64,000 nucleotides of DNA, taken from the NCBI RefSeq assembly GCF_036588685.1, contig NC_086373.1, forward strand, positions 27,590,001 through 27,654,000, written 5' to 3'. A program made the translations under genes and the position numbers. Shown here piece by piece: positions 3,147 through 29,874 of the stretch (positions are counted from its first letter, which is position 1; each line of letters begins with the position of its first letter). This DNA comes from Mytilus trossulus (Eukaryota). Under the pieces are notes generated by a model that saw nothing but the letters and a program-made list of their open reading frames with translations, was not told the DNA's origin and ran no database searches.

Positions 3147-3147
3147 T

Positions 3148-3910: not shown

Positions 3911-3982
3911 TTATAAATGATCAATATCTGACTGTTTTAATCTCATTGAAGGAAGTAGATACATGAATTAGTTATAAAAAAA

Positions 3983-5308
3983 TTATGAAAACAAAGGAAA
4001 ATCTAGTACAATTCCAAGAATATACAATAAATGTGCTACTACCATATAAAGTGCACTGAAAATGCCAAAAACAAAGTCAAGTTCTTCTCCGACATTCTTC
4101 CAGGTAATCTCCTCTTTAGAGGTAAAAGAGTTGATTTCCTCACTATTCGTTCCTCTATACTGATACTCTGATCCGTAGAGTTTTATTTTACTGATATCCA
4201 AACTATCATTGCTTTCATGTTTGTCTGTATTCTCGTCACCTTTACCTTTCGCCCCTTTCCTGCAGCAGCAACCGCATCTAAGTACACGACAAATCTTCAC
4301 AAATCTTTCTCCAAGATATGAAACGGGAATATTTTCATCACGCAGATAATAACGTAGACTTGTAATGACTAGTATAACAATTACGCCACTAAATGCGACG
4401 TCAGCAAAAAGAAGAATTGATAATGTTGGTATTTGTGGATCTGAGATTGCCGGAAGACCAGAGGCGGAAATTGTTAGAAATACGGCAATAGCCAACAATA
4501 CTGTAATAGAAAATCCAACGCGTTCTCCTGAATCTGCTGGTAGTAGAAAGACAAATGGATTAAGAATACACATAAGAACTATTGGCAGTATTAGGTTGAA
4601 AACAAAAAACATAGGCTTTCTCTTCAGTTTCATATGAAAATTTGCCACCTGTGGAACGGCAATTTTGGTCAGATTCGTTTCAACCAAATCCCATGTTTTA
4701 TGTGGGACAAACCATTCAGTTATAAAAGCTGTTGGCCATAATATTACCTCTTTTTCGTCATATGTTGATAAAACAAATGCTAAAGTACATGTTTGTGTAT
4801 CGAATGGATAATCTGTAACATCAGCTTGGCATGAAATATCGAATGCATCGCTTGGAAACCAATCAATTTGTCCAGTATAATGCACCCTCTTTACACTATC
4901 ATCTTTATATAATATTTTTTGTTCTCCATACGGATTTGACATTATAAAGGTTGGTTTCCAAAATAATTCTTCATTGAATGTAAAGGAAGAAGCGCCATAT
5001 TCGCTAGGATCCCATGACACAGTATTGTCTCTCCACTGAACTCCAAAAAATCCATTTAAACTTAATTTTCCGGCAACTTCGTCGAATTCCTGAATATAAG
5101 TCATATGAAAATAAAAGTAAATTATAACAGGTTCGTCCCATTTGTTGACAGGTCTCACCTCTTTGTTTCTTCCATTTGTCACATTTTGTATAAGTTCCTG
5201 TATAGGTTTGTATTCCTCCTTTTTCGATTTATCTTCTTTCTCTTCATCAGCATTGGTATTTAGTAGAAATGATAATATTATAATGATAGAGCACCAATAA
5301 GAAAACAT
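3983..5308 (-). CDS. Intronless Cys-loop ligand-gated ion channel, divergent non-alpha nAChR-like subunit (441 aa)
   Basis: Signal peptide; VRPV, FDEV and WKP motifs; Cys-loop CQADVTDYPFDTQTC; KRKP-M1; PADSGER-M2; four TM segments; no vicinal cysteines. Confidence 0.93.
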   Translation of the reverse strand: MFSYWCSIIIILSFLLNTNADEEKEDKSKKEEYKPIQELIQNVTNGRNKEVRPVNKWDEPVIIYFYFHMTYIQEFDEVAGKLSLNGFFGVQWRDNTVSWDPSEYGASSFTFNEELFWKPTFIMSNPYGEQKILYKDDSVKRVHYTGQIDWFPSDAFDISCQADVTDYPFDTQTCTLAFVLSTYDEKEVILWPTAFITEWFVPHKTWDLVETNLTKIAVPQVANFHMKLKRKPMFFVFNLILPIVLMCILNPFVFLLPADSGERVGFSITVLLAIAVFLTISASGLPAISDPQIPTLSILLFADVAFSGVIVILVITSLRYYLRDENIPVSYLGERFVKICRVLRCGCCCRKGAKGKGDENTDKHESNDSLDISKIKLYGSEYQYRGTNSEEINSFTSKEEITWKNVGEELDFVFGIFSALYMVVAHLLYILGIVLDFPLFS

Positions 5309-6159
5309 TTTTACAACTCGCGTTTAAATTAAATCCAGTTTAAAATGAATCGTAGTAAATTGTTTAGTAAATATTTTTACGTTAATACCGTATTCATAAT
5401 ACCTATTCATGTGTGAAACACTCAAGAAGGCTTATTAAAGGTTATCTAATTACAATGAATGTTTGTCACTCTTACCCTTTAAAGCTTTTATCGTCTTTAT
5501 CCTTATGTAAAAAAAAAAGAATTTAGCGATAGTTATTATATATTGTTTAGTTAAGTATTTCTCCAAATACTTTTAAATAAACGATAATTTAATAGTTTTC
5601 TGGTGATTTCTGTTGGCATGCTAACCAATTTTGTTTAACTGATCTATTAATGTCTAATGGTTAAATGTAACCATATTTTTTTAACAAACAAATTGTTGTT
5701 TATACATATGACAAGCCACACCATAAAATATTTACACCGTTATTGGCAGTGGGTTGCTAAGTTATACAAAATGAAAAGTAATTTGTCCGGTTTTCCACTT
5801 ACCAACTTAAGGATGGTTCCTCCTCTATTTTTTTAATATTTGCCAGATTTTAAGAATCCACTGGTTTTATCCATGTATTAACATTTAAAAAATGTGCCTA
5901 GTAACCCCTACTTTTCTTTTCATGATTTTATAACATAAAGTTTAAAACGACATATTTCAAAATTTGATAAAATCTTTTTTTTCCATAGTTTTCCAACGTT
6001 AAATGTATAAAAAAGTCTAGACAGAATTATTTTCAGCCATTTCAATGGCTTATATCTGAAAAACAAAAACAAAAAACACATACTTTCTTTTTTTCTGCTT
6101 TTTATTTTTTTTATAAAAACTATCCATTCATAGCAGTCTTTTAAAAATCTTGTTTGTTT

Positions 6160-7014: not shown

Positions 7015-7235
7015 TAAATAAACTCATCAGAGACACCAGGTTTAAAAATTTATTTATACGTCAGTATTGTTTTCAGTAAATTTATAATTATGAACATATC
7101 AATAATAATTCAAAACAATACAGAGTGCTGACTACTGGGTTTGTGATACCCTCGGGGAAATAAATCTCCACCAGCTGTGTTATCGACCCAGTTGTTTTAA
7201 ATAAACTCATCATAGATACCAGGATTAAAAATTGA
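7015..7235 (-). mobile_element. Decayed retrozyme-like repeat (hammerhead deleted)
   Basis: AATAAACTCATCA..ACCAGG start occurs twice; GACTACTGGG..CCACCAGC block present. Confidence 0.75.
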
Positions 7236-7257
7236 TATAAAAGGACAGACAATTTTA

Positions 7258-8501: not shown

Positions 8502-8559
8502 AAACGCGCGTCTGGCGTAAATATAAAATTTCAATCCTGGTATCTATGATGAGTTTATT
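8502..8559 (+). mobile_element. 3' stub of retrozyme-like repeat
   Basis: AAACGCGCGTCTGGCGT...CCTGGTATCTATGATGAGTTTATT. Confidence 0.75.
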
Positions 8560-9134
8560 CACCCCCATCTCATATGTAAGAATTTGTGTAGGTCTGACGA
8601 TCCAGTTTTCCGTGAAGACAGTCAGAGTACGACTAAATGGCAAACTAAATTTTTGACAGTTTAAATTTCCATTCTTTGAAATCAATTTTACGATTTTACA
8701 GAGTATGTTTTCTATAGAAAAGCTAAAAATCTAAATAGAAAGAGAGTATCGATGTATTTCTTCCAAATAATTAACTTTCATAAGTTTTAACTGCATTATC
8801 AGGAGATAACACTTTAATTTTAATAATAAATTTATTACACGAGAGATGGCCTAGTTCTGCCTGATGTTGTAATGAAATATTTTAATGATATCGTATTAGT
8901 GTAAGTGCGACTGCTAAGCTGACTGTATTTTTTTTCGTTTTTCAAAATTAAAAAAGTGTTAAAAACTATTTGAAAAAATATAATTTTCAATTGATTTTCA
9001 CAATGTCAGAGATGTATTCTATTGATTATGTTAAATTATAATTTCAAATTGTGAAATATCAAACAGTTGCATTCCAGGTTCATTCCGTTGCCTGTAAGAT
9101 TATTCATAATTACTTGATTGTGGAAGGATTAAAG

Positions 9135-10337
9135 ATGCTTGTTTTTATCATTTGTTTTTCTACTGTCAGTTTTTCTTTATGTCAAAACTCAAGTGATTTC
9201 AAAGCTCTGAAAAAGGAGCTATTCTTTTCAAAGGAATATGATAAAGATTCAAAACCTGTACAAGATTATAAGAGTACCATCTACGTAAATGTTGAATTGA
9301 CATTAAACTCACTTATAACACTCGATGAAGTTCAACAAAGATTAACAACTATTGGATACCTTCATATTAGCTGGTATGATGAGTTCCTAACATGGGACCG
9401 AACACAATATGGAGACTTAGATTATATATACCTTCCTCAGTCAAGCATCTGGAAACCGGATATAACTTTACAAGATAGTTATACAGAGATGGAAGAGCTA
9501 GGTTCCGATTTGATTTTGGCGACAATCAAACATGATGGTAGTGTCAGTTGGACACCATTTCAAGTGTTTAATTCATACTGCCCAGTCTCAATGACATTCT
9601 TTCCATTTGACAGGCAAACTTGTGAATTTGTTTTCGGAGCTTGGAGTATGCAAATGAACGATATTTCCCTTCTCATAACAAATGTATCAGGAATAGCATT
9701 AGAGCGCTCTATAAAGGAAAATACAATTTGGACGGTTGTTTCCACCTCAGTAAAAGCAACACAGTACCATGAAGAATCTAGAGTGATATTTTCTATCACA
9801 TTACAGAGGAAACCGTTGTATGTAATGATGCATTTAGTCCTCCCGTTAGTCCTATTAACACTTTTGAATCTGTTTACATTTGCCATACCTGCTGATAGTG
9901 GTGAACGCATGGGTTACACGGTAACCGTTTGGTTGTCCTTCGGTGTATTCCTTACTCTTGTTGGACAGTCTCTTCCAGAGAGTTCGGAATCCATATCTTT
10001 TATGGATATATTTATAGTGATGCAGCTTTTCCAAAGCACACTGGTAGTGTTACTTTCAGCCGTTTTATCCAGATTAATCGCTCGAAATGGACAGACATTT
10101 ATTTCGTCATGTCTCCTAAAACGCATTGTCACCTATAAGAGAGGAAAGAGTGTGAACACAGCATCGGAGATAAAGAACGATGAAAAGGAAACTCAAATTT
10201 ACATTACCTGGAAAGAGTATGTGTCCACTATTGATTTCTGCGTGTTTTGGTGTTTGCTGTCAATATGCATCCTACTGATAACTGCACTTTCATTCTACAC
10301 TGTTTACAAAGCTGAATATACGCTTTCAGGGGAATGA
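9135..10337 (+). CDS. Intronless non-alpha nAChR-like subunit (400 aa), paralog A
   Basis: First ATG at 9135 opens a signal peptide (the ORF-track start 9051 is GTG); WKPDITL; Cys-loop CPVSMTFFPFDRQTC; FGAW; PADSGER; four TMs. Confidence 0.93.
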   Translation: MLVFIICFSTVSFSLCQNSSDFKALKKELFFSKEYDKDSKPVQDYKSTIYVNVELTLNSLITLDEVQQRLTTIGYLHISWYDEFLTWDRTQYGDLDYIYLPQSSIWKPDITLQDSYTEMEELGSDLILATIKHDGSVSWTPFQVFNSYCPVSMTFFPFDRQTCEFVFGAWSMQMNDISLLITNVSGIALERSIKENTIWTVVSTSVKATQYHEESRVIFSITLQRKPLYVMMHLVLPLVLLTLLNLFTFAIPADSGERMGYTVTVWLSFGVFLTLVGQSLPESSESISFMDIFIVMQLFQSTLVVLLSAVLSRLIARNGQTFISSCLLKRIVTYKRGKSVNTASEIKNDEKETQIYITWKEYVSTIDFCVFWCLLSICILLITALSFYTVYKAEYTLSGE

Positions 10338-11081
10338 ACAAAATTCCTATCACAAACCGTACACGTACTTCAGAAAAGGGACTGCAATTTAATTTAGTCA
10401 TATACGTTTTTATTCATTCTTTTATCCGTGTGGCTTTAGTGTAAGATATATGAGGAGATGGAATTAGTAGAAACAAAGCCTGGCATTTTGTTTAATTTAT
10501 AATTGTATTGTACCGCTTTCATCAACATTTTTGATTACACAAATGAATATTCAGTGTTGGCGCACAAACATGATGTACATATGACTGATCGTTAGCTTTA
10601 TATTGTAATTCTCTTTTTTCTTTTCTCTTGTATTCTTAGTTTCAATACTCATTCTTGCCATACGCTTGTTGTCTTCTATTAGCTTTATTACTTTTTTTCT
10701 TCATAATTTAAGGAACAACTCATTAGAGGATTACATTTTCTATTAAATTTAAGCGTTATGCTTATACACTTTCTCTTCAAATGATGACTTTATTCAGAAA
10801 TGACTTGCCTGTTACCTTTAGTACGTTTTTAGATAGAACGTTCACATCAATGCACTATTGATGACGTCGATTAGTTTAAAACCAGTTAGATCATGAACGT
10901 ATATGTGTAATGACACTTCAATTGTTAGATAAAGGTATACCGAATATCCTGGTAAAAAAATATCGAACTTTTGATTACCAAGTACCAAACTCCAATTTGT
11001 ATCGTGATGTCTAAAGACTTATCATTACTTAATAACATATGTCATCTATCGAGGCAAAATTATAGCGAGACCCTCACAGCT

Positions 11082-11580
11082 CACAGAAACAAATCAGTAA
11101 TACACTACGAAGAGATAATATGTAAACAATATTATCAGGTAATGAACTCATCAGTGATGAGAAAAACAAATATATTTAAAAGTTGTACAATGTTTTATTT
11201 AAGAAACAGGAAGATTTGCTTCATTAACAATTATTTTTATGTCGATTTAGAAGTTGAAACTTTAATTTAATGTAACCTTATTTTCGAAACATTATTACAT
11301 TTCTCATCTGCATGTGAGGCCACAATTATAAAAAAAAATAAGGAATGAGTTGATCATATTTTTCGATCAAACTGACTTCTGAGTAACAGGCAAACAACAG
11401 AATAAACCTGTCATGTGAATTAAAAATGTTAGTATACGAGTTTTTATACTATGCTCCTATTATGTTATTTTTTTAAAAGGAAATGGATTTATATAAGTTC
11501 TTCTGGTTTCCAAATCCCAGTTTTTGTTATTGTATAATTGTATTTTGTGCACTTTTTGAAAATAAAATATTGTTTAAACT
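11082..11580 (+). mobile_element. 5'-truncated LINE 3' end
   Basis: Absent from the paralogous position in copy 2; decayed ORF2-like C-terminus (..LISDEKNKYI.KVVQCFI.ETGRF); ends AATAAAATATTGTTTAAACT. Confidence 0.7.
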
Positions 11581-11960
11581 AAGTATGGTATGAGACATCT
11601 GTATCAATCTATAACAAAAACGTATTGTGTTGTGATAACGTTGAAAGAAAAAGACATTCAATATAAATTCATGGCTTTAAATATGATTGCATTTCTTTCT
11701 AGAAATATAGATCGTCATGTCCTTCTTATATTAGTGTTATGCAATAACGTTAAAGTTCTACCATTAATTTGAGGTTTGGAATTAGTTAGGTTTTTTTGCC
11801 TTTTTTGGGGATAAGACTTTTTTTTGTAGTTTTAATAGACGGGATATTCGTAGCTTGGCTTAATTCTGTTCACTTTGTACTCAGTTAATATTTTCTTAAA
11901 TCCTCCTGTCCTCTCTCAGAAATTCAAATGGTCTGTACTGTTCATACAGAGATACCTTTT

Positions 11961-12619
11961 ATAATAAACTTATCATAGATACCAGTATTAAAATTTTAGA
12001 CGCGCGTTTCGTCTACAAAAGACTCACCAGTGACGCTTGAATCAAAAACAGTTTAAAAGGCCAAACAAAGTACGAATTTGAAGAGCATTGAAGACCAAAA
12101 ATTCCTCAAAGTTTTGCCAAACACAGCAAAGGTAATCTATTCTTGAGGTAGAAAAGCCTTAGTATTTAAAAATCAAGTTTTGTTAACAGTTAACTCATTA
12201 TTATGAACATATTAATGATAACTCAAGTCAACACAGAAGTGCTGACTACTGGGCTGGTCTTACCCTCGAGGAAGTAAATCTCCACCAGCAGTGGCATCAA
12301 CCCAGTGGTTGTAAATAAACTCATCATATATACCATGAGTAACATTTTATATTTACGCCAGACACATGTTTCGTCTACAAAACAAATAAATGTTTAAAAG
12401 GCCAAATAAAGTATGAAGTTGAAAAGCATTGAAGACCAAAAAATCTTAAAAGATTTGCCAAATACAGCTGAGGTAGAAAAAAAAAAGAATTTTAATAATA
12501 CAAAGTTTTGTTTACAGTTAACTTATTATTATGAAAATATCAATGATAGCTTTAGTCAACACAGAAGTGGTGACTACTGGGCTAGCGATACCCTCGAGGA
12601 ACTAAATCTCCACCAGCAA
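11961..12619 (-). mobile_element. Retrozyme-like repeat, about two head-to-tail decayed monomers
   Basis: Unit starts near 11963 and 12314; hammerheads mutated (CUGGUGA with stem I deleted; second lacks CUGAUGA); empty site in copy 2 near 27865. Confidence 0.85.
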
Positions 12620-13069
12620 GCTGATATGATAATATGATTCCTATATAAACCAGTATAGCAATTAGGAAAAGCATAAACAATATACTGTTTAATAAACCCG
12701 ACATGTCCAATATAAACTGACAACATAGTTACACTTGTAAAATCGAGATAAGTAATATTAGATGGTATAATCCCAAGGAAAAAGTTCAAATGCGTGCTAT
12801 TTGATGTCAGAATATATATTAACTACAATGTTAAGTGTGTCACGATGTGGTTAGCCACAAATTGTGTCCTAGAATCACGTTTTAAGTTCGTTTTCTTCAG
12901 GCAAGAACACTGTAAAAGGAGAAAAGGAAAGAAATTAACAATTTTAAACTAGTGGTAAATGGACATCCGATATGATGAAATATTTTACTGTAAGTTCAGA
13001 AATATTTACGATGTATTTATTTTAGCGAAAACGGCAACAGGTTCGGTTTTGAAAAGGTGAAAACTCACC

Positions 13070-13340
13070 TATTAAGCCCAATTTATATGCATTATGTTTT
13101 CTGGTCTGTGCGTCCGTTGGTTCGTCCGTTCGTCCGTCCGTTCGTCTGTCCCGCTTCAGGTTAAAGTTTTTGGTCGAGGTAGTTTGAGATGAAGTTGAAG
13201 TCCAAGCAACTTTAAACTTAGTAAACATGTTCCCTGTGATATGATCTTTCTAATTTTAATGCCAAATTAGAGATTTTATCCCAACATAGAAAATGATAGT
13301 GTAGATGAGGCATCAGTGTACTTGGGACACATTCTTGTTT
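13070..13340 (+). mobile_element. Short HINE/Helentron-like insertion with (CGTC/CGTT)n tract
   Basis: GTCC-type microsatellite; 3' hairpin GTGTAC..GGACAC then ATTCTTGTT; absent in copy 2 near 28340. Confidence 0.7.
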
Positions 13341-13749
13341 AAATATTGCAATAATTATTTGAATGCATTATGTTCCCAAAGCGCAGTAATAAATCTCGCG
13401 TTTTACCATTGTCCAACAATCATAATTACAAATGGAGTCAAAAGTTTCTGAATTTACAGTCATTGAACGGCGCAGTGTTCCAAAAGGATATACTTTATAA
13501 AGTTATCAGTGAAAAACACAATCAATGTGTGGTTACTTAACAATAAATTCAAACTAGTCAAAACCAGTATTTATAAATGAACATCGAGTTATAGAAAAAT
13601 AACTGATTTGGTTTTCTTTTTCCTTTTTTAAAGTTAAATGCTATTTAATATATATATTTTTATATTGTTAAGTTTTTATTCGAAAGTCTATTTTTTGTAA
13701 ACAAACACCAAACACTAACAGAAACAATGACAGCATTTTATGATCTTTT

Positions 13750-13955
13750 AAATATACTCATTATAGATACCAGGATTAAAATTTTATATTTAGGCCAGAC
13801 GCGCGTTTTGTCTACAAAAGACGCTGCAGTGACGCTCGAATAAAAAAAAGTTAAAAAGGCCAAATAAAGAGCGAAGTTAACGAAAGAGGACCAAACATTC
13901 CTAAATGTTTGCCAATGCACCTAAGATAATCTATTCCTGAGGTGGAAAACCCTTA
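13750..13955 (-). mobile_element. Decayed retrozyme-like repeat
   Basis: Family sequence; hammerhead boxes mutated (CUGCAGC, GAAA lost). Confidence 0.8.
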
Positions 13956-14173
13956 AAAGTGTGTGGGTTGACTATTTATGTCCAAATGTGACCACTTCCC
14001 TTCAATTTACATATTAGAAATAAAGTAACATTTTTTTTTCTCGAAAAATTTCTGAAATATTTACCATTTAATAAATCTGACAACAACGCATTGGTTTGTG
14101 TTTGTTTAACATGACTTTAAGAGCCAATCAGGCAGTGGTGAGTATAACAAACAAAACCCCAATCAAGTTGACA

Positions 14174-14461
14174 TTAATTTATATTCTAAATGTATAATAG
14201 TGCATGAATATAACATTTGTTACCTTTTCCTGTTCTTGTAATCAAGATATAATTTGGTTGAAATGCACATAAATCAACAATTGACGGGATCTAACTCCGT
14301 AAATTGAAATTCTTCTAACCTAGAATTTCAATTTACGGAGTTAGATCCCGTCAATTGTTGATTTATGTGCATTTCAACCAAATTATATCTTGATTACCAG
14401 AACAGGAAAAGGTAACAAATGTTATATTCATGCACTATTATACATTTAGAATATAAATTAA
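14174..14461. repeat. 288-bp near-perfect palindrome (140-bp arms, 8-nt loop)
   Basis: Arms 14174-14313 and 14322-14461 are reverse complements with one mismatch seen; loop TCTAACCT; TTAA at both outer ends. Confidence 0.95.
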
Positions 14462-15285
14462 AATTAAAATTATAGCGAACATTTATTGTTGCAATGTCAG
14501 GGAAAACTGTATATATCTGAATATCTGCCATGTTTTGATTGATAATTTGCATATTTTTTAAAGTCTGGCATGCACTTCAAATCAGCAAATATTTTTTCAG
14601 ATACACAACACGCTTTTGACATCAAGGTAGCACGATTGGTTGTTACGTTTTAGCTTTCTTGGATTGTGTTTTTTGTATATTTTCAAGGACATGCATTTTT
14701 TTATCTGCTTGTTTGATTCGTAAAGTTGGTGCTTGTTTTTTTTATCTTGTTTCATGTTTCAGTGTACTTTATTTTTTTCTAAATGTGAAGCGCATAGATT
14801 TTTTTGTTATTATATAATGCACTCTATAATAGTGCATATATTCATTTATTTATAATGCGTGCGAGATTAAATTTATAAAATCAATTTACGCATCACAGAA
14901 AATAGAAGCATGATGAATTATTCCTGACAATAAATTCTATAATTATAAAAAGGGATTCAAAATTCTTAAATTTAATTCACAGGAGATGTCTTAGTTATGT
15001 CGGATAGGAATTTTTAATGACGCATTTTAATGAAATCGTGTCCGTGTAAGTGAGAATGCTAAACCGCATCTATTCTTTTGTGTTTTAAAATGAAAAAGTG
15101 AGCAAAAACTGTATCTATATTTTTTTTAAAGCTTGAATTGATTTTTACAAAGTCAGAAAAGTATTCTATTGATCCTTTAAAATTACAATTTTAAAGTGTG
15201 AACTACCAAAGAGTTGCATTCCTGGTTTATTTCGTTGCCTGCAAGATTATTCATAATCAATTTAATTATTGTGGAAGGATTAAAG

Positions 15286-16488
15286 ATGATTGTTTTTATC
15301 ATTTGGATTTCTACTGTAAGTTTTTCTTTATGCCAAAACTCAAGTGATGTCAAAGCTTTGAAAAGAGAGCTATTCGTAACTAAGGAATATGATAAGGATT
15401 CCAAACCTGTACAAGATTATGAGAGTACCATCTACGTAAATGTTGAATTGACATTAAACTCACTAATAACACTCGATGAAGTTCAACAAAGATTAACAAC
15501 TATTGGATACCTTAATATAAGTTGGCATGATGAGTTTCTAACATGGGACCGAAAACAATATGGAGACTTGGACTATATATACCTTCCTCAGTCAGAGATC
15601 TGGAAACCGGATATAACCTTACAAGATAGTTATACAGGGATGGAAGAGCTTGGTTCTGATTTGATATTGGCGACAATCAGACATGATGGTAGTGTCAATT
15701 GGACACCGTTTCAAGTATTTAATTCATACTGTCCAGTCTCAATGACGTTCTTTCCATTTGACAGGCAAACTTGCGAATTTGTTTTCGGAGCTTGGAGTAT
15801 GCGTCTGAAAGATGTTTCCCTTCTAATAAAAAATGTGTCAGAAATAGCATTGGAGCGCTCAATAAAAGAAAATACAATTTGGACGGTTGTTTCAACCTCA
15901 GCAAGTACAGCACAGTACCATGAGGAATCTCTAGTGATATTTTCTATCACATTACAGAGGAAACCGTTGTATGTTATGCTGAATATGGTTCTCCCATTAG
16001 TCCTTTTATCACTTTTGAATCTGTTTACATTTGCCATACCTGCTGATTGTGGTGAACGCATGGGTTACACGGTAACCGTTTGGTTGTCCTTCGGTGTGTT
16101 CCTTACTATAATTGGACAGTCTTTGCCAGAGAGTTCGGAATCCATATCTTTTATGGATATATTTATAGTGATGCAGCTATTCCAAAGTACACTGGTGGTG
16201 TTGCTCTCAACCATTGTATCCCGATGTTGTGCTCGAAATGGACAGACATTTATTTCGTCATGTCTCCTGAAACGCATTGTAACCTATAAGAGAGGAAAGA
16301 GTGTGAACACATCATCGGAGATTACGAACGATGCAAAGAAAACTCAAATTTACATTACATGGAAAGAGTATGTGTCCACTATTGATTTCTGTTTGTTTTG
16401 GTGTTTGCTGTCAATATGCATACTTTCAATTACCGCACTTTCATTTTACACCGTTTACAAAGCTGAGTACACGCTTTCAGGAAAATGA
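15286..16488 (+). CDS. Intronless non-alpha nAChR-like subunit (400 aa), paralog B
   Basis: ATG at 15286 (the ORF-track start 15214 is TTG); same motifs and length as paralog A; about 45 aa differences counted by eye. Confidence 0.93.
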   Translation: MIVFIIWISTVSFSLCQNSSDVKALKRELFVTKEYDKDSKPVQDYESTIYVNVELTLNSLITLDEVQQRLTTIGYLNISWHDEFLTWDRKQYGDLDYIYLPQSEIWKPDITLQDSYTGMEELGSDLILATIRHDGSVNWTPFQVFNSYCPVSMTFFPFDRQTCEFVFGAWSMRLKDVSLLIKNVSEIALERSIKENTIWTVVSTSASTAQYHEESLVIFSITLQRKPLYVMLNMVLPLVLLSLLNLFTFAIPADCGERMGYTVTVWLSFGVFLTIIGQSLPESSESISFMDIFIVMQLFQSTLVVLLSTIVSRCCARNGQTFISSCLLKRIVTYKRGKSVNTSSEITNDAKKTQIYITWKEYVSTIDFCLFWCLLSICILSITALSFYTVYKAEYTLSGK

Positions 16489-16979
16489 ATAACAATTCTT
16501 TTACAAACCATACAAGTATGAGGACTGAAAAATGAGTCAGTCGTGAATGTTTTTTTTTTCATTTTATCATTATGGCTAAACTGCAAGATATGCATTGTAG
16601 AAGGAGATGGGTTCAGTAGAAGCAAAGCCTGGAAATTTGTTTAATTGTTTAATTGTATTGTACCGCTTTTATCAACATTTTCATTTACACAAATGAGTAT
16701 TCAGTGTTGGCGCACAAACATGATGTACATATGACTGCTCGTTTGTAATTATATCATGAATTATTTTTTTTCAATATTCATTATATGCCATAAGCTAGCT
16801 ATCGTCTATTAGATTCACTGTCATTATTTTTCTTAATAATTTAATGTCCATGAGAACACTTAAATTTTTATCCAAATTCAAGCGGTAAGCTTATGCAGTT
16901 CTATCTCAAATGATGACTAAATTATAATTTATTTCTATGCCTGAAACCTTTAATACTTTCTTCAAAAATGTCCCCAATC

Positions 16980-18145
16980 TCTGTCACTAAGAAGCGGAAT
17001 CCTATTCATTATGAAAACCTCGTCTCTGGTTATACCCTTCTTCATTGTTATATCTTGCCACTAATTGATTATTCATGAATACCTCATCCTTGGTCATATC
17101 CTTCTTCATTGTTATATCTTGCCATTAATTGATTATTGTGGTATAGGTTGGGTAAGATCTCTCTAACTAAGAAGCGGAACCCAATTCATCATGAATACCT
17201 CATCCTTGGTTATACCCTTCTTCATTGTTATATCTTTCCACCAATTGATTAATCATGAATACCTCATCTCTGGTTATACCCTTCTTCATTGTTAAATCTT
17301 GCCACTAATTGATTAATCATGAATACCTCATCTCGGGTTATACCCTTCTTCATTGTTATATCTTGCCACTAATTGATTAATTATGAATACCTCATCTCTG
17401 GTTATACCCTTCTTCGTTGTTATATCTTGCCACTAATTGATTAATCATGAATACCTCATCTCTGGTTATACCCTTCTTCATTGTTATATCTTGCCATTAA
17501 TTGATTAATCATGAATATCTCATCCTTGGTCATACACGTTGTACCCTTCTTCATTGTTATATCTTGCCACTAATTGATTATTGTGGTATAGTTTGGAGTA
17601 TATCGCTCTCACTGAGAAGCGGAACCTAATTCATCATGAATACCTCATCATTGGTCATACCCTTCGTCATTGTTATATCTTTCAACCAATTGATTAATCA
17701 TGAATACCTCATCTCTGGTTATACCTTCTTCATTGTTATATCTTGCCACTAGTTGGTAAATCAGGAATACCTCATCTCTGGTTATACCCTTCTTCATTGT
17801 TATATCTTGCCACTAATTGATTAATCATGAATACCTCATCTCTGGTTATACCCTTCTTCATTGTTATATCATGCCACTGATTTATTAATCATGAATACCT
17901 CATCTCTGGTTATACCCTTCTTCATTGTTATATCTTGCCACTAATTGATTAATCATGAATACCTCATCTCGGGTTATACCCTTCTTCATTGTTATATCTT
18001 GCCACTAATTGGTTAATCATGAATACCTCATCGTTGGTTATACCCTTCTTCGTTGTTATATCTTGCCACTAATTGATTAATCATGAATACCTCATCCTTG
18101 GTCATACCCTTCTTCAGTGTTATATCTTGTCACTAATTGATTACA
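16980..18145 (+). repeat. 64-bp minisatellite (~16 units, with interspersed longer variant) derived from LINE coding sequence
   Basis: Unit CATGAATACCTCATCTCTGGTTATACCCTTCTTCATTGTTATATCTTGCCACTAATTGATTAAT; long variants translate YILPLIDYCGIVWS. Confidence 0.9.
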
Positions 18146-18464
18146 CGTTATATAGTTTGGAGTAGTTGTAGCAGTCGGTGGTTTAATTAGGATCTTAAAA
18201 TTACAAAAGAGAGCTGCTAGATTAATACTAGAAACAGACCTTTTTGCTACTTCTGAACCCTAATGGGTTATTGAAACAATTAAACTGGAATATTATAGTT
18301 TTCAATACAACTTGAAAAATGTCAGAAAATTAAACGTGATAACATACCCAAACAGTTTTCAATATTTTTGTATGAATAAAATTGATGTATATACTGTCTT
18401 CTGATTGGTTAAAAATAACTGTGTAACCCTTCTAAAATAAAATATTGTTGTTGCTGTTGTTGTT
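18120..18464 (+). mobile_element. Decayed CR1/L2-group LINE ORF2 fragment with AATAAA-(GTT)n tail
   Basis: IVWSSCS..LIRILKLQKRAARLIL motif; tail AAAATAAAATATTGTTGTTGCTGTTGTTGTT. Confidence 0.75.
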
Positions 18465-19178: not shown

Positions 19179-19380
19179 ACAACAAAAGTCACCAATGAAA
19201 TGTTGAAGTCGATTGGTTAAAAACCAGTAAGATCATGGAAGTATATTTATATTGACAAAGGTTAAATCGAGTATCCCGGGCATAAATACGATTTTTTATT
19301 CACCATTTAAGCTGTTAAAAATGTACAAAACCCTAACTTGTATCGTGATGGCTAAAGACTCATCGGTACTCACTAACATA

Positions 19381-19561
19381 TTACCTTAGATGTATTTGGC
19401 AAAACGTTTAGGAATTTTGGTCCTTAATGCTCTTCAACTTCTTACTGTATTTGGCTTTTTTAAATTTTTGGATTCGAGCGTCACTGATGCGTCTTTTGTA
19501 GACGAAACGCGAGTCTGGCCTATATATACAAAATTAAGTCCTGGTATCTATGATGAGTTTA
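19381..19561 (+). mobile_element. 5'-truncated retrozyme-like insertion inside the first satellite monomer
   Basis: Splits AACATA|TGTCA relative to copy 1; ends GGTATCTATGATGAGTTTAT. Confidence 0.85.
19478..19521 (+). ncRNA. Degenerate type I hammerhead ribozyme
   Basis: GCGUCA-CUGAUGC-GUCU(UUUGU)AGAC-GAAA-CGCGAG-UC/UGGCCU; the last A of CUGAUGA is mutated, so probably impaired. Confidence 0.65.
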
Positions 19562-19564
19562 TAT

Positions 19565-22500
19565 ATGTCACCCGTCCAGACAAAATTATAGCGAGACCCT
19601 CACAGCTAAGTATGGTTTTAGATATCGTTATAGTTTAAAACTCGTCGGTACTCAGTAACATTTGTCACCTGTCGAGACAACATTAAAACGTGACCCTCAT
19701 AGCTAAGTATGGTTTTAGATATCGTTATGGCTTAAGACTCATCGGTGCCCAGTAACATCTGTCACCTGTCGAGACAACATTTATGCGAGACCCTCACTGC
19801 TAAGTATGGTTTATGATATCGTTATGGCTTAAGATTCATCGGTACTCAGTAACATTTGTCACCAGTCGAGACAACATTAAAACGTGACCCTCATAGCTAA
19901 GTATGGTTTATGATATCGTTATGGCTTAAGATTCATCGGTACTCAGTAACATTTGTCACCAGTCGAGACAACATTAAAACGTGACCCTCACAGCTAAGTA
20001 TGGTTTTAGATATCGTTATAGTTTAAAACTCGTCGGTACTCAGTAACATTTGTCACCTGTCGAGATAACATTAAAACGTGACCCTCATAGCTAAGTATGG
20101 TTTATGATATCGTTATGGTTTAAAACTCATCGGTACTCAGTAACATCTGTCACCTGTCGAGACAACATTAAAACGTGACCCTCATAGCTAAGTATGGTTT
20201 ATGATATCGTTATGGCTTAAGACTCATCGGTACTCAGTAACATTTATCACCTGTCGAGACAACATTAAAGCGAGAACCTCACTGCTAAGTATGGTTTATG
20301 ATATCGTTATGGCTCAAGACTCCTCGTTACTCAGTAACATCTGTCACCTGTCGAGACAACATTAAAGCGAGACCCTCACTGCTAAGTATGGTTTATGATA
20401 TCGTTATGGCTTAAGACTCATCGGTACTCAGTAACATCTGTCACCTGTCGACGAGACAGCATTGAAGCGGGACCCTCACTGCTAAGTATGGTTTATGATA
20501 TCGTTATGGCTTAAGATTCATCGGTACTCAGTAACATCTGTCACCTATCGAGACAACATTAAAGCGAGACCCTCACAGCTAAGTATGGTTTCTGATATCG
20601 TTATGGCTTAAGACTCATCGGTACTCAGTAACATCTGTCACCTGTCGAGACAACATTAAAGCGAGACCCTCACTGCTAAGTATGGTTTATGATATCGTTA
20701 TGGCTTAAGACTCATCGGTACTCAATAACATCTGTCACCTGTCGACGAGACAGCATTGAAGCGGGACCCTCACTGCTAAGTATGGTTTATGATATCGTTA
20801 TGGCTTAAGATTCATCGGTACTCAGTAACATCTGTCACCTATCGAGACAACATTAAAGCGAAATCCTCACAGCTAAGTATGGTTTCTGATATCGTTATGG
20901 CTTAAGACTCATCGGTACTCAGTAACATCTGTCACCTGTCGAGACAACATTAAAGCGAGACCCTCACTGCTAAGTATGGTTTATGATATCGTTATGGCTT
21001 AAGACTCATCGGTACTCAATAACATCTGTCACCTGTCGAGACAACATTAAAACGTGACCCTCATAGCTAAGTATGGTTTATGATATCGTTATGGTTTAAG
21101 ACTCATCGGTACTCAGTAACATCTGTCACCTATCGAGACAACATTTAAGCGAGACCCTCACTGATAAGTATGGTTTATGATATCGTTATGGCTTAAGACC
21201 CATCGGTACTCAGTAACATCTGTCACCTGTCGAGACAACATTAAAGCGAGACCCTCACTGCTAAGTATGGTTTATGATATCGTTATGGCTTAAGACCCAT
21301 CGGTACTCAGTAACATCTGTCACCTGTCGAGACAACATTAAAACGTGACCCTCATAGCTAAGTATGGTTTATGATATCGTTATGGCTTAAGATTCATCGG
21401 TACTCAGTAACATTTGTCACCAGTCGAGACAACATTAAAACGTGACCCTCACAGCTAAGTATGGTTTTAGATATCGTTATAGTTTAAAACTCGTCGGTAC
21501 TCAGTAACATTTGTCACCTGTCGAGACAACATTAAAACGTGACCCTCATAGCTAAGTATGGTTTATGATATCGTTATGGTTTAAAACTCATCGGTACTCA
21601 GTAACATCTGTCACCTGTCGAGACAACATTAAAACGTGACCCTCACAGCTAAGTATGGTTTATGATATCGTTATGGCTTAAGACTCATCGGTACTCAGTA
21701 ACATCTGTCACCTGTCGAGACAACATTTATGCGAGACCCTCACTGATAAGTATGGTTTATGATATCGTTATGGCTTAAGATTCATCGGTACTCAGTAACA
21801 TCTGTCACCTATCGAGACAACATTTAAGCGAGACCCTCACTGCTAAGTATGGTTTATGATATCGTTATGGCTTAAGACTCCTCGGTACTCAATAACATCT
21901 GTCACCTATCGAAACAACATTAAAGCGAGACCCTCACTGCTAAGTATGGTTTATGATATCGTTATGGCTGAAGACTCCTCGGTACTCAGTAACATCTGTC
22001 ACCTATCGAAACAACATTAAAGCGAGACCCTCACTGCTAAGTATGGTTTATGATATCGTTATGGCTTAAGACTCATCGGTACTCAGTAACATCTGTCACC
22101 TATTGAGACAACATTTAAGCGAGACCCTCACAGCTAAGTATGGTTTTAGATATCGTTTTAGCTTCAGACTCATCGGTACTCGGTAACATCTGTCACCTGT
22201 CGAGACAACATTAAAGCGAGACCCTCACTGCTAAGTATGGTTTATGATATCGTTATGGCTTAAGACTCATCGGTACTCAGTAACATCTGTCACCTGTCGA
22301 GACAACATTTATGCGAGACCCTCACTGATAAGTATGGTTTATGATATCGTTATGGCTTAAGATTCATCGGTACTCAGTAACATCTGTCACCTATCGAGAC
22401 AACATTTAAGCGAGACCCTCACTGCTAAGTATGGTTTATGATATCGTTATGGGTTAAGACTCCTCGGTACTCAATAACATCTGTCACCTATCGAAACAAC

Positions 22501-25500
22501 ATTAAAGCGAGACCCTCACTGCTAAGTATGGTTTATGATATCGTTATGGCTGAAGACTCATCGGTACTCAGTAACATCTGTCACCTATCGAAACAACATT
22601 AAAGCGAGACCCTCACTGCTAAGTATGGTTTATGATATCGTTATGGCTTAAGATTCATCGGTACTCAGTAACATCTGTCACCTATCGAAACAACATTAAA
22701 ACGTGACCCTCACAGCTAAGTATGGTTTATGATATCGTTATGGTTTAAGACTCATCGGTACTCAGTAACATCTGTCACCTATCGAGACAACATTTAAGCG
22801 AGACCCTCACTGCTAAGTATGGTTTATGATATCGTTATGGCTTAAGACTCATAGTTACTCAGTAACATCTGTCACCTGTCGAGACAACATTAAAACGTGA
22901 CCCTCATAGCTAAGTATGGTTTATGATATCGTTATGGCTTAAGACTCATCGGTACTCAGTAACATTTATCACCTGTCGAGACAACATTAAAACGTGACCC
23001 TCACAGCTAAGTATGGTTTATGATATCGTTATGGCTTAAGACTCATCGGTACTCAGTAACATCTGTCACCTGTCGAGACAACATTAAAACGTGACCCTCA
23101 CAGCTAAGTATGGTTTTAGATATCGTTATAGTTTAAAACTCGTCGGTACTCAGTAACATTTGTCACCTGTCGAGACAACATTAAAACGTGACCCTCATAG
23201 CTAAGTATGGTTTATGATATCGTTATGGTTTAAAACTCATCGGTACTCAGTAACATCTGTCACCTGTCGAGACAACATTAAAACGTGACCCTCACAGCTA
23301 AGTATGGTTTATGATATCGTTATGGCTCAAGACTCCTCGGTACTCAGTAACATCTGTCACCTGTCGAGACAACATTAAAGCGAGACCCTCACTGCTAAGT
23401 ATGGTTTATGATATCGTTATGGCTTAAGACTCATCGGTACTCAGTAACATCTGTCACCTATTGAGACAACATTTAAGCGAGACCCTCACAGCTAAGTATG
23501 GTTTTAGATATCGTTTTAGCGTCAGACTCATCGGTACTCGGTAACATCTGTCACCTGTCGAGACAACATTAAAGCGAGACCCTCACTGCTAAGTATGGTT
23601 TATGATATCGTTATGGCTTAAGACTCATCGGTACTCAGTAACATCTGTCACCTGTCGAGACAACATTTATGCGAGACCCTCACTGATAAGTATGGTTTAT
23701 GATATCATTATGGCTTAAGATTCATCGGTACTCAGTAACATCTGTCACCTATCGAGACAACATTTAAGCGAGACCCTCACTGCTAAGTATGGTTTATGAT
23801 ATCGTTATGGCTTAAGACTCCTCGGTACTCAATAACATCTGTCACCTATCGAAACAACATTAAAGCGAGACCCTCACTGCTAAGTATGGTTTATGATATC
23901 GTTATGGCTGAAGACTCATCGGTACTCAGTAACATCTGTCACCTATCGAAACAACATTAAAGCGAGACCCTCACTGCTAAGTATGGTTTATGATATCGTT
24001 ATGGCTTAAGATTCATCGGTACTCAGTAACATCTGTCACCTATCGAAACAACATTAAAACGTGACCCTCACAGCTAAGTATGGTTTATGATATCGTTATG
24101 GTTTAAGACTCATCGGTACTCAGTAACATCTGTCACCTATCGAGACAACATTTAAGCGAGACCCTCACTGCTAAGTATGGTTTATGATATCGTTATGGCT
24201 TAAGACTCATAGTTACTCAGTAACATCTGTCACCTGTCGAGACAACATTAAAACGTGACCCTCATAGCTAAGTATGGTTTATGATATCGTTATGGCTTAA
24301 GACTCATCGGTACTCAGTAACATTTATCACCTGTCGAGACAACATTAAAACGTGACCCTCACAGCTAAGTATGGTTTATGATATCGTTATGGCTTAAGAC
24401 TCATCGGTACTCAGTAACATCTGTCACCTGTCGAGACAACATTAAAACGTGACCCTCATAGCTAAGTATGGTTTATGATATCGTTATGGCTTAAGATTCA
24501 TCGGTACTCAGTAACATTTGTCACCAGTCGAGACAACATTAAAACGTGACCCTCACAGCTAAGTATGGTTTTAGATATCGTTATAGTTTAAAACTCGTCG
24601 GTACTCAGTAACATTTGTCACCTGTCGAGACAACATTAAAACGTGACCCTCATAGCTAAGTATGGTTTATGATATCGTTATGGTTTAAAACTCATCGGTA
24701 CTCAGTAACATCTGTCACCTGTCGAGACAACATTAAAACGTGACCCTCACAGCTAAGTATGGTTTTTGATATCGTTATGGCTCAAGACTCCTCGGTACTC
24801 AGTAACATCTGTCACCTGTCGAGACAACATTAAAGCGAGACCCTCACTGCTAAGTATGGTTTATGATATCGTTATGGCTTAAGACTCATCGGTACTCAGT
24901 AACATCTGTCACCTATTGAGACAACATTTAAGCGAGACCCTCACAGCTAAGTATGGTTTTAGATATCGTTTTAGCTTCAGACTCATCGGTACTCGGTAAC
25001 ATCTGTCACCTGTCGAGACAACATTAAAGCGAGACCCTCACTGCTAAGTATGGTTTATGATATCGTTATGGCTTAAGACTCATCGGTACTCAGTAACATC
25101 TGTCACCTGTCGAGACAACATTTATGCGAGACCCTCACTGATAAGTATGGTTTATGATATCGTTATGGCTTAAGATTCATCGGTACTCAGTAACATCTGT
25201 CACCTGTCGAGACAACATTTATGCGAGACCCTCACTGCTAAGTATGGTTTATGATATCGTTATGGCTTAAGACCCATCGGTGCCCAGTAACATCTGTCAC
25301 CTATCGAGACAACATTTAAGCGAGACCCTCACTGCTAAGTATGGTTTATGATATCGTTATGGCTGAAGACTCATCGGTACTCAGTAACATCTGTCACCTA
25401 TCGAAACAACATTAAAGCGAGACCCTCACTGCTAAGTATGGTTTATGATATCGTTATGGCTTAAGATTCATCGGTACTCAGTAACATCTGTCACCTGTCG

Positions 25501-27570
25501 AGACAACATTTATGCGAGACCCTCACTGCTAAGTATGGTTTATGATATCGTTATGGCTTAAGACCCATCGGTACTCAGTAACATCTGTCACCTGTCGAGA
25601 CAACATTTATGCGAGACCCTCACTGCTAAGTATGGTTTATGATATCGTTATGGCTTAAGACTCATCGGTGCCCAGTAACATCTGTCACCTGTCGAGACAA
25701 CATTAAAACGTGACCCTCATAGCTAAGTATGGTTTATGATATCGTTATGGCTTAAGACTCATCGGTGCCCAGTAACATCTGTCACCTGTCGAGACAACAT
25801 TAAAACGTGACCCTCACTGCTAAGTATGGTTTATGATATCGTTATGGTTTAAGACTCATCGGTACTCAGTAACATCTGTCACCTATCGAGACAACATTTA
25901 AGCGAGACCCTCACTGCTAAGTATGGTTTATGATATCGTTATGGTTTAAGACTCATCGGTACTCAGTAACATCTGTCACCTGTCGAGACAACATTAAAAC
26001 GTGACCCTCATAGCTAAGTATGGTTTATGATATCGTTATGGCTTAAGACTCATCGGTACTCAGTAACATTTATCACCTGTCGAGACAACATTAAAACGTG
26101 ACCCTCACAGCTAAGTATGGTTTTAGATATCGTTATGGCTTAAGACTCATCGGTACTCAGTAACATCTGTCACCTGTCGAGACAACATTTATGCGAGACC
26201 CTCACTGCTAAGTATGGTTAATGATATCGTTATGGCTTAAGACTCATCGGTACTCAGTAACATCTGTCACCTGTCGAGACAACATTTATGCGAGACCCTC
26301 ACTGCTAAGTATGGTTTATGATATCGTTATGGCTTAAGACTCATCGGTACTCAGTAACATCTGTCACCAGTCGAGACAACATTAAAACGTGACCATCATA
26401 GCTAAGTATGGTTTTAGATATCGTTATGGCTTAAGACTCCTCGGTACTCAGTAACATCTGTCACCTGTCGAGACAACATTAAAGCGAGACCCTCACTGCT
26501 AAGTATGGTTTTAGATATCGTTATGGCTTAAGACTCCTCGGTACTCAGTAACATATGTCACCTGTCGAGACAACATTAAAGCGAGACCCTCACTGCTAAG
26601 TATGGTTTATGATATCGTTATGGCTTAAGACTCATCGGTGCCCAGTAACATCTGTCACCTATCGAGACAACATTTAAGCGAGACCCTCACTGCTAAGTAT
26701 GGTTTATGATATCGTTATGGTTTAAGACTCATCGGTGCCCAGTAACATCTGTCACCTATCGAGACAACATTTAAGCGAGACCCTCACTGCTAAGTATGGT
26801 TTATGATATCGTTATGGCTTAAGACTCCTCGGTACTCAGTAACATCTGTCACCTGTCGAGACAACATAAAAGCGAGACCCTCACTGCTAAGTATGGTTTT
26901 AGATATCGTTATGGCTTAAGACTCCTCGGTACTCAGTAACATATGTCACCTGTCGAGACAACATTAAAGCGAGACCCTCACTGCTAAGTATGGTTTATGA
27001 TATCGTTATGGTTTAAGACTCATCGGTGCCCAGTAACATCTGTCACCTATCGAGACAACATTAAAGCGAGACCCTCACTGCTAAGTATGGTTTATGATAT
27101 CGTTATGGCTTAAGACTCCTCGGTACTCAGTAACATATGTCACCTGTCGAGACAACATTAAAGCGAGACCCTCACTGCTAAGTATGGTTTATGATATCGT
27201 TATGGCTTAAGACTCATCGGTGCCCAGTAACATCTGTCACCTGTCGAGACAACATTAAAGCGAGACCCTCACTGCTAAGTATGGTTTATGATATCGTTAT
27301 GGTTTAAGACTCATCGGTGCCCAGTAACATCGGTCACCTATCGAGACAACATTTAAGCGAGACCCTCACTGCTAAGTATGGTTTATGATATCGTTATGGT
27401 TTAAGACTCATCGGTGCCCAGTAACATCTGTCACCTATCGAGACAACATTTAAGCGAGACCCTCACTGCTAAGTATGGTTTATGATATCGTTATGGTTTA
27501 AGACTCATCGGTACTCAATAACAGCCGTCACCTGTCGAGACAACATGAAAACGAGACCCTGACAGTTTTG
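19565..27570. repeat. 97-bp satellite array, about 82 copies, with higher-order structure
   Basis: Unit AAGTATGGTTTATGATATCGTTATGGCTTAAGACTCATCGGTACTCAGTAACATCTGTCACCTGTCGAGACAACATTAAAGCGAGACCCTCACTGCT; period measured as 20581 to 20678. Confidence 0.97.
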
Positions 27571-29874
27571 AATGGTTTCAGACATCTATATCAATCAATT
27601 ACAAAAAAAACGTGTTGTGTCACAATAGCGTTCAGTGGGAAATTCTATAAATATAAATTTCTAGTATTATGCGATTGTGCATCAGGGACGAGGGTCGACC
27701 ATCTGATGTTGTTTTGTGTTTTTTGTTGGGCCCTGTAAAATAGGGCAGTAAAATTTGTTTCAAGTTTTAACAGACAGGATATTCGTAACTCGGTTTAATT
27801 CACTTCTAATAATCCAACTGTCTTCTCAGAATGTAAAATGGTCGTCTCTTTTCTTACAGAGATACATTTTAGGAGCTAATATGATAGAATCTAATATACT
27901 TTATATAAATAAAACAAAAATAATACAGTATAATAAACGCAATACGTCAAAAATAAACTAACAACAAAGTTAAACATGTAAAATCGAGATAAGTAATATA
28001 AGATGGTATAATCCCGAGGAAACAGTTCAAATACGTGCTACTAGTATTTGATGTAAGAACATGATTTTTTTTTATATTAACTGCAAGGTTATTAAAATGT
28101 GTCACGACATGGATAGCTACAAATTGTGTCCTAGAATCACGTTTTAGGTTCGTTTTCTTCAGGCATCAAGATAACTGTGTGAGGAGTAATGAAACAAAAC
28201 ATGAAAAATGAACAATTTTGACAACTTGTGCTAAATGGACATCCAAATTGATGATATATACAACTGTAAGTCTAGAAATATTTGAGATGTATTTATTTTA
28301 GCGAAAAATACAACTGGTCGGTTTTGAAGAGGTGAAAACACGCTTTGTAGATATTGATATATTTATCTGTATGCTCCATTTCCCAAAATTGAAGGAATTG
28401 ATTTCACGTTTTAATGCCTTTTGTCCAAGCAATATTTAAATCGTAATGAAAAATGCTCGCATATATTTCTGAATTGACAGTTATTGCAAGACGCAATGTT
28501 CCAAAAGAATTTAGATGAGGTAACGCAAGAACATTTCAATCAACGTGTGGTTTAACAAAAAATGTTCAATCTTATCAAAACCAGTATGAACACTGAGTTA
28601 TGGAAATTTATAGTACGGCCTTTAACAATTAGAAAAACCGATGCATTATAATCAGGTACACAAGGCCCCAACAAGACAAATCAAAGTACTGAAGTACTGA
28701 CATCGAATGACCGCAAGTTCTTGTAAAAATCACATGTTTATGTCACATGAAAGCTTGGCTAAGGTGTATAGACGGGATTTTTTTCGAGAAAGATTCCTTT
28801 GTGGATGATGAATTAATGACTAGCATTTCCATCTCACCGTAATATCTATTATGTTGTAGTTATATATTCACTTGTTATCTATATACTCTAGTTTGTTGTT
28901 ATATAATATATTAATATATGTTTAACAGTTATATATAATTTCCATCCATTTGTATATCATTCGATTCTTCTATTCTAAGGTAATTGCAATGCAAATGCAT
29001 GGTGGACACTCTTCTGTAATATTTCGTTTTTCTAATAGATTGAATTTAAAAATCTTTTTCAAAAATATTTATTGAATGTTATTTTGCACTCGATAATATC
29101 CGAGTAATAATATGAAATACGTTCGGTTATCAGTCTAAAACGAAAGTCACGTGGGTAAAGATGTCTGACGCGTGCAACAAAACACCGGAATGCTCTCACG
29201 GTCATTCGCTGTTAAAAATATGAACCAGTTCCACCAACAACAAAAAAATCTGCTCGGTTTATAACAAATACAATTAAAGACACACAAAAATGTCAGACAT
29301 TTTTATTAGTTTCTTCTGTCCATCGGACTTGAACATTTTGTTATCTGAGTTTTACTGTGTGTTTTGCAGAGTGATTGTTTATTTCACATTGACTTTATAT
29401 ATGTAAGAGGGCTGAGAACTCACAAAACATGTTAAACCCCGCTGCGTTGTTTTGTCTGTCCAAAGTTAGGATCCACTAGTCTTTATTAGTCTTGTTTATT
29501 TTTTTATATTTTTTTTTTATTTCTATCTCTTGGAGTTAAGTGCAGCTTCCATTTCTATGATAAGCATATGTTATTGTTTTAAGTGGAAGCTGAATACAGC
29601 ATTCGTGGTGTCATTGAAGACCCATTGGTGGTCTTGTGCTGTTTTCCCGCTCTTTGGTTGATTTGTTATCTCTTTGAAACCTTACCCGATTCCATCCTTC
29701 AATCTATCAAACAACGACTACCATTGCATTATGGGCTCCTAACATAGGATAAGCATATAGAATGTAGCAATGTTTAACATGTCTGAAAGCACTAACCTTT
29801 CTACAAACCTGGTACACATTTATAACAGCAAAACCCAAGAAATGAGAAAAAAAAAGAATTGTAAAAGATAAAAG

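Follow-up and report, generated by a model that had tools for sequence, protein, structure and literature searches.

The window, a stretch of 64,000 nucleotides of Mytilus trossulus DNA, contains three genes without introns that encode Cys-loop channels (PF02931 and PF02932); the nearest homologs were from Mytilus. Two are close paralogs, here termed copies 1 and 2 (Table 1), and the third, a distant intronless nAChR-like gene at 3983-5323 on the reverse strand with 29% identity, faces away from this pair. Intronless, tandemly duplicated nAChRs are described as common in bivalves (PMC6896357). In a phylogenetic tree gene 1 clustered with proteins of M. edulis and M. galloprovincialis that are its orthologs (support 99/99), and a gene-2-like protein at a distance of 5-12% was also identified in both species. 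Because both carry gene-1 orthologs and a gene-2-like protein, the gene duplication is likely older than the split between M. edulis and M. galloprovincialis. Three adjacent family members were observed on one M. coruscus contig (P0001, P0069, and P0004), two of them just 3% apart. Two neighbouring family proteins of M. coruscus paired together in the tree (support 90/88), and this grouping and the 3% distance suggest an independent duplication or conversion.

The two genes lie in a colinear duplicated block (about 8700-13600 vs. 14900-28610), which includes the 97-bp sequence that is the subject of this report. The matching segments are 10859-11040/19201-19381 to the left of the 97-bp unit, and 11581-11990/27555-27960, 12682-13064/27923-28339, and 13340-13597/28348-28606 to its right. 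The noncoding p-distance between the blocks is 0.16-0.27 (pooled 0.222, 468 of 2110 aligned sites). A 2.2-kb insertion between gene 2 and the left flank, found only in copy 2, is made up of a 64-bp array and a LINE-like fragment. The 64-bp array, with a strong C/T strand bias, consists of about 18 copies grouped into three blocks that each begin with a different piece; the LINE-like fragment (about 18480-19060) is decayed coding sequence for which no Pfam family was found.

Table 1. Features of the two gene copies and their 97-bp units, in window coordinates.
Feature	Position	Strand	Remarks
Gene copy 1, intronless, for a 400-aa Cys-loop (nAChR-like) channel subunit	9135..10337	+	PF02931 (E 9e-45), PF02932
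Copy 1 left flank of unit	10859..10999	+	Homologous to about 19186-19340; p-distance about 0.25
Copy 1 unit, positions 1-82	11000..11081	+	82% identity to array unit, BLAST E 6e-18
5'-truncated LINE-like tail, 499 bp	11082..11580	+	About 48 decayed codons, ORF2-like C-terminus, then 354-bp 3' end
Copy 1 unit, positions 83-97	11581..11595	+	Followed by CATC, then right flank
Copy 1 right flank	11596..13597	+	Colinear with 27583-28606; retrozyme copies interrupt at about 11956-12618
Gene copy 2, intronless nAChR-like paralog of copy 1	15286..16488	+	89% protein identity, dN 0.059, dS 0.277
Separate 64-bp tandem array in copy-2-only insertion	16977..18164	+	No copy 1 counterpart
Copy 2 left flank of array	19186..19340	+	Same sequence beside unit in runs X1 and X5
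Positions 1-41 of first array unit, separated from the rest	19341..19381	+	Copy 1 states kept at 7, 14, 40
Hammerhead-ribozyme repeat fragment (non-LTR retrozyme type) within first unit	19382..19566	+	Possible ATAT target-site duplication
First array unit, positions 42-97	19567..19622	+	Copy 1 states kept at 59, 64
81 internal units, 55 distinct	19623..27485	+	Mean pairwise difference 7.4%
Last array unit	27486..27582	+	5' part array-like, 10 private differences, continues into right flank; joined to flank in two X1 contigs
Copy 2 right flank	27583..28606	+	Depth low in all four runs examined

Structure of the 97-bp unit in the two gene copies

Copy 1 was originally predicted to hold one monomer split by an insert of about 500 bp, and this is what we found: the quoted letters lie at 11000-11081 and 11581-11599, and the insert is 499 bp long. 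In the window outside the array there was no other match to the unit better than E 0.4, barring the detached first 41 bp of copy 2's first unit. Since the copy 1 unit has itself diverged, at nine sites that are private relative to all copy-2 units, we refer to it as an unexpanded paralogous unit rather than as a progenitor, as the original prediction had named it.

The insert in copy 1 had been called a LINE tail. Its junctions have a 2-bp CT in common, without a longer target-site duplication. A scan for its last 24 bases identified two unrelated contigs with the same 24-bp end, in which the likeness to the insert runs 70-125 bp upstream at 66-77% and ends at or within 2 bp of the boundary; judged by these two contigs, which were picked by their shared 24-bp end, the insert is a 3'-anchored dispersed repeat, as a LINE 3' tail would be. 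Upstream in contig L001, a reading frame closes with a Cys/His knuckle and a C-terminus; the latter aligns to the insert (translated with X at its breaks) with a score of 44, a value reached by 2 of 5000 shuffles. We take a Cys/His-knuckle C-terminus of this kind to mark LINE ORF2. The nearest Pfam-bearing Atlas cluster to the L001 C-terminus is zf-RVT (15% of members, score 0.88), which we treat as a lead only. The shared end and the L001 alignment support the LINE assignment indirectly, whereas direct protein searches with the fragment (its 31-aa and 44-aa readings) produced no match; Pfam searches of the LINE-like pieces identified no informative family. We consider it likely from these comparisons that the copy 1 insert is a LINE tail.

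At the colinear position in copy 2 is a tandem array for which TRF reported a period of 97, 82.4 copies, and 93% matches (19566-27560). Division into individual units gave 81 internal units (79 of 97 bp and two of 100 bp) and two edge units, about 83 in total. The expectation of about 82 copies at the paralogous site between the same unique flanks was therefore borne out in number and colinearity, but on the left side the array does not directly meet unique DNA: its first unit, too, is interrupted, here by 185 bp of a retrozyme, a split that the original prediction had missed. The array resembles a VNTR in having head-to-tail units of one period, 97 bp, and an unexpanded homolog at the syntenic position, this homolog being paralogous, not orthologous. 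Concerted evolution, divergent edges, and higher-order blocks (of 14-15 units) are traits that it has in common with satellites, but it is not a very long, abundant, multi-locus array (8 kb; tens of copies by depth in four runs), and the term satellite, as first applied to it, is too strong for an 8-kb and apparently single-locus array.

Unit-to-unit similarity within the array is highest at lags of 14-15 units (none of 2000 permutations reached the signal), and units 26-35 reappear as units 40-49, no pair differing at more than one position. Against the consensus, the left edge unit has 11 differences in 97 positions and the right edge unit 14, the internal mean being 7.4%; such divergent edge units are the expected outcome of unequal exchange under the established model. 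The left edge unit matches an array variant only past position 64, and the right edge unit does so mainly in its first 38 bases. The copy 1 unit clustered with the left edge unit (support 100/94) in a tree of 58 units (97 columns) that was mostly unresolved and was used only for this pairing. When the copy 1 unit, left edge unit, consensus, and right edge unit were compared site by site, there were 9, 2, 2, and 10 private sites, respectively, two complex sites, and five sites at which copy 1 and the left edge unit have a state in common that distinguishes them from the internal array and the right edge.

The retrozyme fragment in the first unit has 73-81% identity to five other copies in the window and was also found in runs X1 and X5. 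Its hammerhead core is changed (CTGATGC for CTGATGA) and it had no Rfam match, and by its sequence it is likely inactive. Two of the five related copies match the type I hammerhead model RF00163 at E 1e-4 with 33 bits, one bit short of the 34-bit cut-off. Further hammerhead-repeat copies lie at 3147-3917, 7015-7250, 8502-8562, 11956-12618, and 13745-13955; the core is intact at 3184-3227 and 3522-3565 and altered in the remaining ones. The non-LTR retrozymes of Mytilus are described as 350-390-bp repeats (PMC7229834), and the 185-bp insert is like them in deriving from a 340-350-bp family with putative type I hammerheads, a likeness in description. Unlike the elements in that account, the insert is a passenger rather than the repeated unit and its core is altered. 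Because no other unit carries the retrozyme, its insertion likely postdates the first duplication of the unit. We considered the retrozyme as the trigger of the array and rejected it: the array junction joins sequence from both sides of the retrozyme, which is nevertheless missing from all the units, and a target-site duplication would have a different geometry.

The junction between units was predicted to be GATATCG, formed through an ATC microhomology, and both points hold, with GATATCG at 81 of 82 junctions (the other is GATATCA) and an ATC overlap at the 97-bp offset. GATATC corresponds to the unit end GACATC fused to the unit start TGTATC. Overlaps of at least 3 bp occur at 8.2% of random 97-bp breakpoints (taken from 38000-64000), and since they are this common the microhomology is compatible with template switching or end-joining, the routes argued for CUP1 junctions of at most 3 bp (PMC4232551), and is proof of neither. 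TGTATC is also present in copy 1 as a 6-bp repeat at 103-bp spacing, a second possible junction that needs a later loss of 6 bp.

Occurrence of the array in other samples

Of 211 words sampled from the array, 5-22% were present in ten runs from four studies, which carry two organism labels plus that of a mollusc metagenome. The ceiling on distinct array words is 4.0% for one unit and 5.7% for a uniform tandem; shares of 10% or more exceed both, and therefore several unit variants are common to at least six runs. The shares in X7-X10 were 0.05-0.07, and no weight is placed on these runs.

Depth was analyzed in four of the ten runs (X1, X2, X5, and X6) over 27389-28350, where uncovered bins in X2, X5, and X6 carry no weight. 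The measure employed, summed contig depth relative to the two-haplotype flank, is a rough ratio and no true copy number. In X5, where two flank contigs had depths of 28.2 and 28.9, the depth summed over contigs reached 4200-5060 at each position of the unit, equivalent to about 73-95 copies. The corresponding values were about 16-41 in X1, 14-28 in X2, and 10-38 in X6, with the single-copy depth judged from few contigs. Three X5 contigs are identical to the window, and X5 may represent the window's own individual, in which case its depth is a test of the assembly rather than an independent sample. The array may vary in copy number between individuals, the rough ratios being 10-41 in three runs vs. 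73-95 in one, all of them contig depths and not copy numbers.

Two X1 contigs link the last unit to the right flank, with 4 of 201 and 22 of 245 letters differing, and one X6 contig goes back exactly 97 bases. The public runs thus contain the array with unchanged edges in another sample. Among 24 of the 88 loose contig ends, seven were on the unit: five of these continued into the locus's own left flank or retrozyme (X1 and X5), one was array-like, and one, of 10 bases, was too short to be placed, so that none of the seven led to an unrelated flank. No contig among those listed spans the array. Both the depth and the seven loose ends fit confinement to one locus, and the array looks like one variable locus rather than an abundant satellite or an assembly artefact. 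A pattern of 22 bases from the unit had no matches in metagenome contigs, which hold little mussel DNA. At 28250-28314 depth was raised and the loose ends were varied, and a short motif there is probably common to a few other loci. Satellites of Mytilus were described earlier (the ApaI families and Mg1-3); our literature searches identified no paper on this array, and older papers on Mytilus satellites may fall outside them.

Origin and age of the array

We consider it probable that the 8-kb array is a single-locus, length-variable repeat that arose when 97 bp of ordinary DNA lying downstream of gene copy 2 was duplicated head to tail, probably not long after the genes themselves had duplicated, and that copy 1 kept a single unit. 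The colinear position, the structure of the unit, edge units more divergent than the internal ones, the block duplications, both insertions, and the presence in other samples are observed directly. The original prediction had the array born de novo from ordinary flanking DNA after the gene duplication. Birth from duplicated flanking DNA at this site is well supported, by the colinear unit, the lack of HINE modules, and the depth expected of one locus, but the word "after" fared less well, as the edges of the array have diverged as much as the paralogs.

Between the two edge units there are 19 differences in 97 positions (0.196), a larger number than the 13 between copy 1 and the left edge unit and a divergence indistinguishable from the 0.222 of the paralog flanks (Fisher p = 0.62). 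From these divergences the array appears to be nearly as old as the duplication. A Poisson fit placed the ratio of array age to duplication age at 0.70-0.86, with an interval from about 0.4 to the model's maximum of 1.0. The left two-thirds of the unit lean toward an origin after the duplication; the right third leans against it, in part because of changes clustered at 81-86, which may reflect a single event, and in this last third most of the change sits in the right edge unit. That we place the array after the duplication is a matter of parsimony. Equal divergence of edges and paralogs would also fit an array of greater age that was lost from copy 1 except for one unit.

Under this alternative a dimer or short array predates the gene duplication and copy 1 was reduced to one unit by a crossover between end units, its single unit being a remnant. 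We regard this history as unlikely, yet as one to be taken seriously: besides the matching divergences and an age-ratio interval that takes in 1.0, a collapse yields the same structure as an unexpanded unit, and reduction to one copy was measured at yeast CUP1 (PMC4232551). However, copy 1 is without clear chimerism and tracks the left edge unit as far as position 64, which would confine the crossover to the last third. Also, the left edge unit has only two or three private changes in positions 1-64 where seven or eight are expected at the flank rate had it been as old as the duplication, a weak difference (Poisson p about 0.05).

If the array did arise by duplication of the copy 2 flank, its growth can be outlined as follows. 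A dimer would have formed by a one-off template switch or end-joining event at the ATC overlap. Unequal crossing-over or conversion would then have expanded and homogenised the inner units, spreading changes at positions 7, 14, 40, 59, and 64, which the left edge would have escaped. The retrozyme fragment would have entered the first unit once the dimer existed, and recent duplications of 14-15-unit blocks may have lifted the count to about 83. Entry of the LINE into copy 1 would be an independent event that explains nothing about the array. The array is most likely neutral.

It is much less probable that the unit derives from some older dispersed repeat that was already in the block before the duplication, such as the central repeat of a Helentron/HINE as in oysters, and that the array is element-borne. 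In Crassostrea gigas, all 13 of 13 abundant tandem-repeat clusters are reported to be HINE central repeats (PMC7492417). The left edge unit is the closest relative of the copy 1 unit, and the two are also closer (13 of 97 differences, 13%) than the flanks are (22%; p = 0.044); 11 overlapping 11-mer matches were found between the copy-2 flanks vs. a mean of 2.4 and a maximum of 9 in 30 shuffles. However, these 11-mers fall in few clusters, are mostly AT-rich, and none adjoins the array. HINE modules (subterminal inverted repeats, left microsatellite, right palindrome) were not found at the locus, with no hairpin in the right flank and no adjoining microsatellite, although in an old element they may have decayed beyond recognition. 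An element of this type would have the same flanks at many loci, whereas here the depth of the right flank is near single-copy and the unit depth fits one array. None of the seven unit loose ends among the 24 of 88 was foreign, and the empty metagenome search points weakly in the same direction.

We find it very improbable that the array is an artefact of assembly or has been much inflated by the assembler. The lack of a spanning contig among those listed, the almost exact recurrence of units 26-35 as 40-49, and the lower depth in other samples would fit such an error, but the 55 distinct units have a nested block structure, the X6 contig goes back exactly 97 bases, the X1 contigs link a unit junction to the right flank, and the X5 depth matches about 83 copies. 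Least credible of all is the original suggestion that copy 1 was equally ready to amplify and that the LINE insertion prevented it: the insert does lie between the two ATC motifs and increases their spacing from 97 to 596 bp, but a block is unneeded because staying single is the default state of any 97-bp stretch, the founding duplication was presumably a rare one-off event whose absence needs no cause, and copy 2's first unit also took an insertion while the array kept growing.

Comparison with known systems and possible function

The birth of such arrays is already known from CapA, the CACNA1C VNTR, and CUP1, and arrays of which a single unit survives are known from CACNA1C, WDR7, and CapA; the locus described here is a clear example of a known process. 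The human-specific 30-bp VNTR of CACNA1C (PMC11118589) and 69-bp VNTR of WDR7 (PMC13196383) are, as described in these sources, likewise kilobase arrays at one locus that vary in length and have a single unit differing at fixed sites. In comparison the mussel unit is longer (97 bp) and its array older. In both of those cases the direction of change is fixed, because the single unit is found at the orthologous site of another species; the paralogous unit 8 kb away in the mussel gives no such direction. It is this, an unexpanded unit that is a paralog in the same genome, that is distinctive.

CapA of New World monkeys derives from an intron of NOS1AP (Valeri et al., 2018, as cited in PMC8210747) and is similar in that a tandem repeat was traced to single-copy noncoding DNA. 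According to the same source CapA was amplified in one clade and is single-copy in other eutherians, whereas the mussel array does not appear to have spread from where it arose. The minisatellite-origin model of Haber and Louis (1998, as cited in PMC4232551) and the CUP1 array treated in that paper involve junctions of at most 3 bp of homology followed by unequal exchange, and short direct repeats at the array ends, of which TGTATC would be the equivalent here. The differences are that CUP1 units are gene-sized and selected, with no selected product evident in the mussel, and that the 6-bp repeat here is at 103 bp, not 97. The Cg_HINE central repeats of the Pacific oyster (PMC7492417) are similar in being euchromatic arrays in a bivalve with units of about 100 bp or more; in contrast to them, no HINE modules were found in the mussel array, its flanks are not multi-copy, and it is apparently at one locus.

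The mussel case leaves the model of array formation unchanged. As there are few tandem repeats whose origin can be traced to unique DNA, and the abundant oyster arrays are transposon-borne, it is useful to have a worked example of a bivalve array with its unexpanded twin at a distance of 8 kb. The locus preserves the junction, five fixed changes that followed the birth of the array, an edge effect, a relative date for the retrozyme, and recent block expansions.

A regulatory role was also considered, in which the array would be an old, length-variable repeat at the 3' end of a truncated receptor isoform, with output tuned by its length and with the sister paralog keeping the state before amplification. 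The public gene model P0073 joins gene 2 (donor at 16186) by a GT..AG intron to a last exon at 19097-19206, which ends 135 bp before the first unit. This exon is mostly inserted DNA found only in copy 2, and it replaces the last 100 residues of the receptor, so that the fourth membrane helix is lost. Read as two exons, gene 2 is identical to a protein labelled M. trossulus at 336 of 336 residues, and the intronless 400-aa product of gene 2 was absent from the protein collection searched. The next AATAAA after the last exon of P0073 is at 27908, past the array. We think such a role improbable; if it were true, the locus would be a built-in control for the birth and co-option of a satellite within one genome. 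ATTAAA is a variant of the polyadenylation signal. The fixed change at unit position 64 makes an ATTAAA (positions 60-65) in most units, which may be chance; the motif is missing from the copy 1 unit and the left edge unit.

Several other features of the window were recorded. Rfam matches to plastid psbJ and to a SECIS element were rejected, the former as a generic hairpin and the latter as sub-threshold. A long inverted repeat was seen by eye at about 14100-14460, with Rfam hairpin matches at 14276-14359, and is possibly a fold-back element. The reverse strand at 33462-35099 has an ORF for a 545-aa B-box protein, a cluster of direct and inverted repeats of 400-500 bp occupies 56900-60200, and further arrays are present at 36139-37121 (degenerate, 26 bp) and 63266-63807 (135/261 bp).
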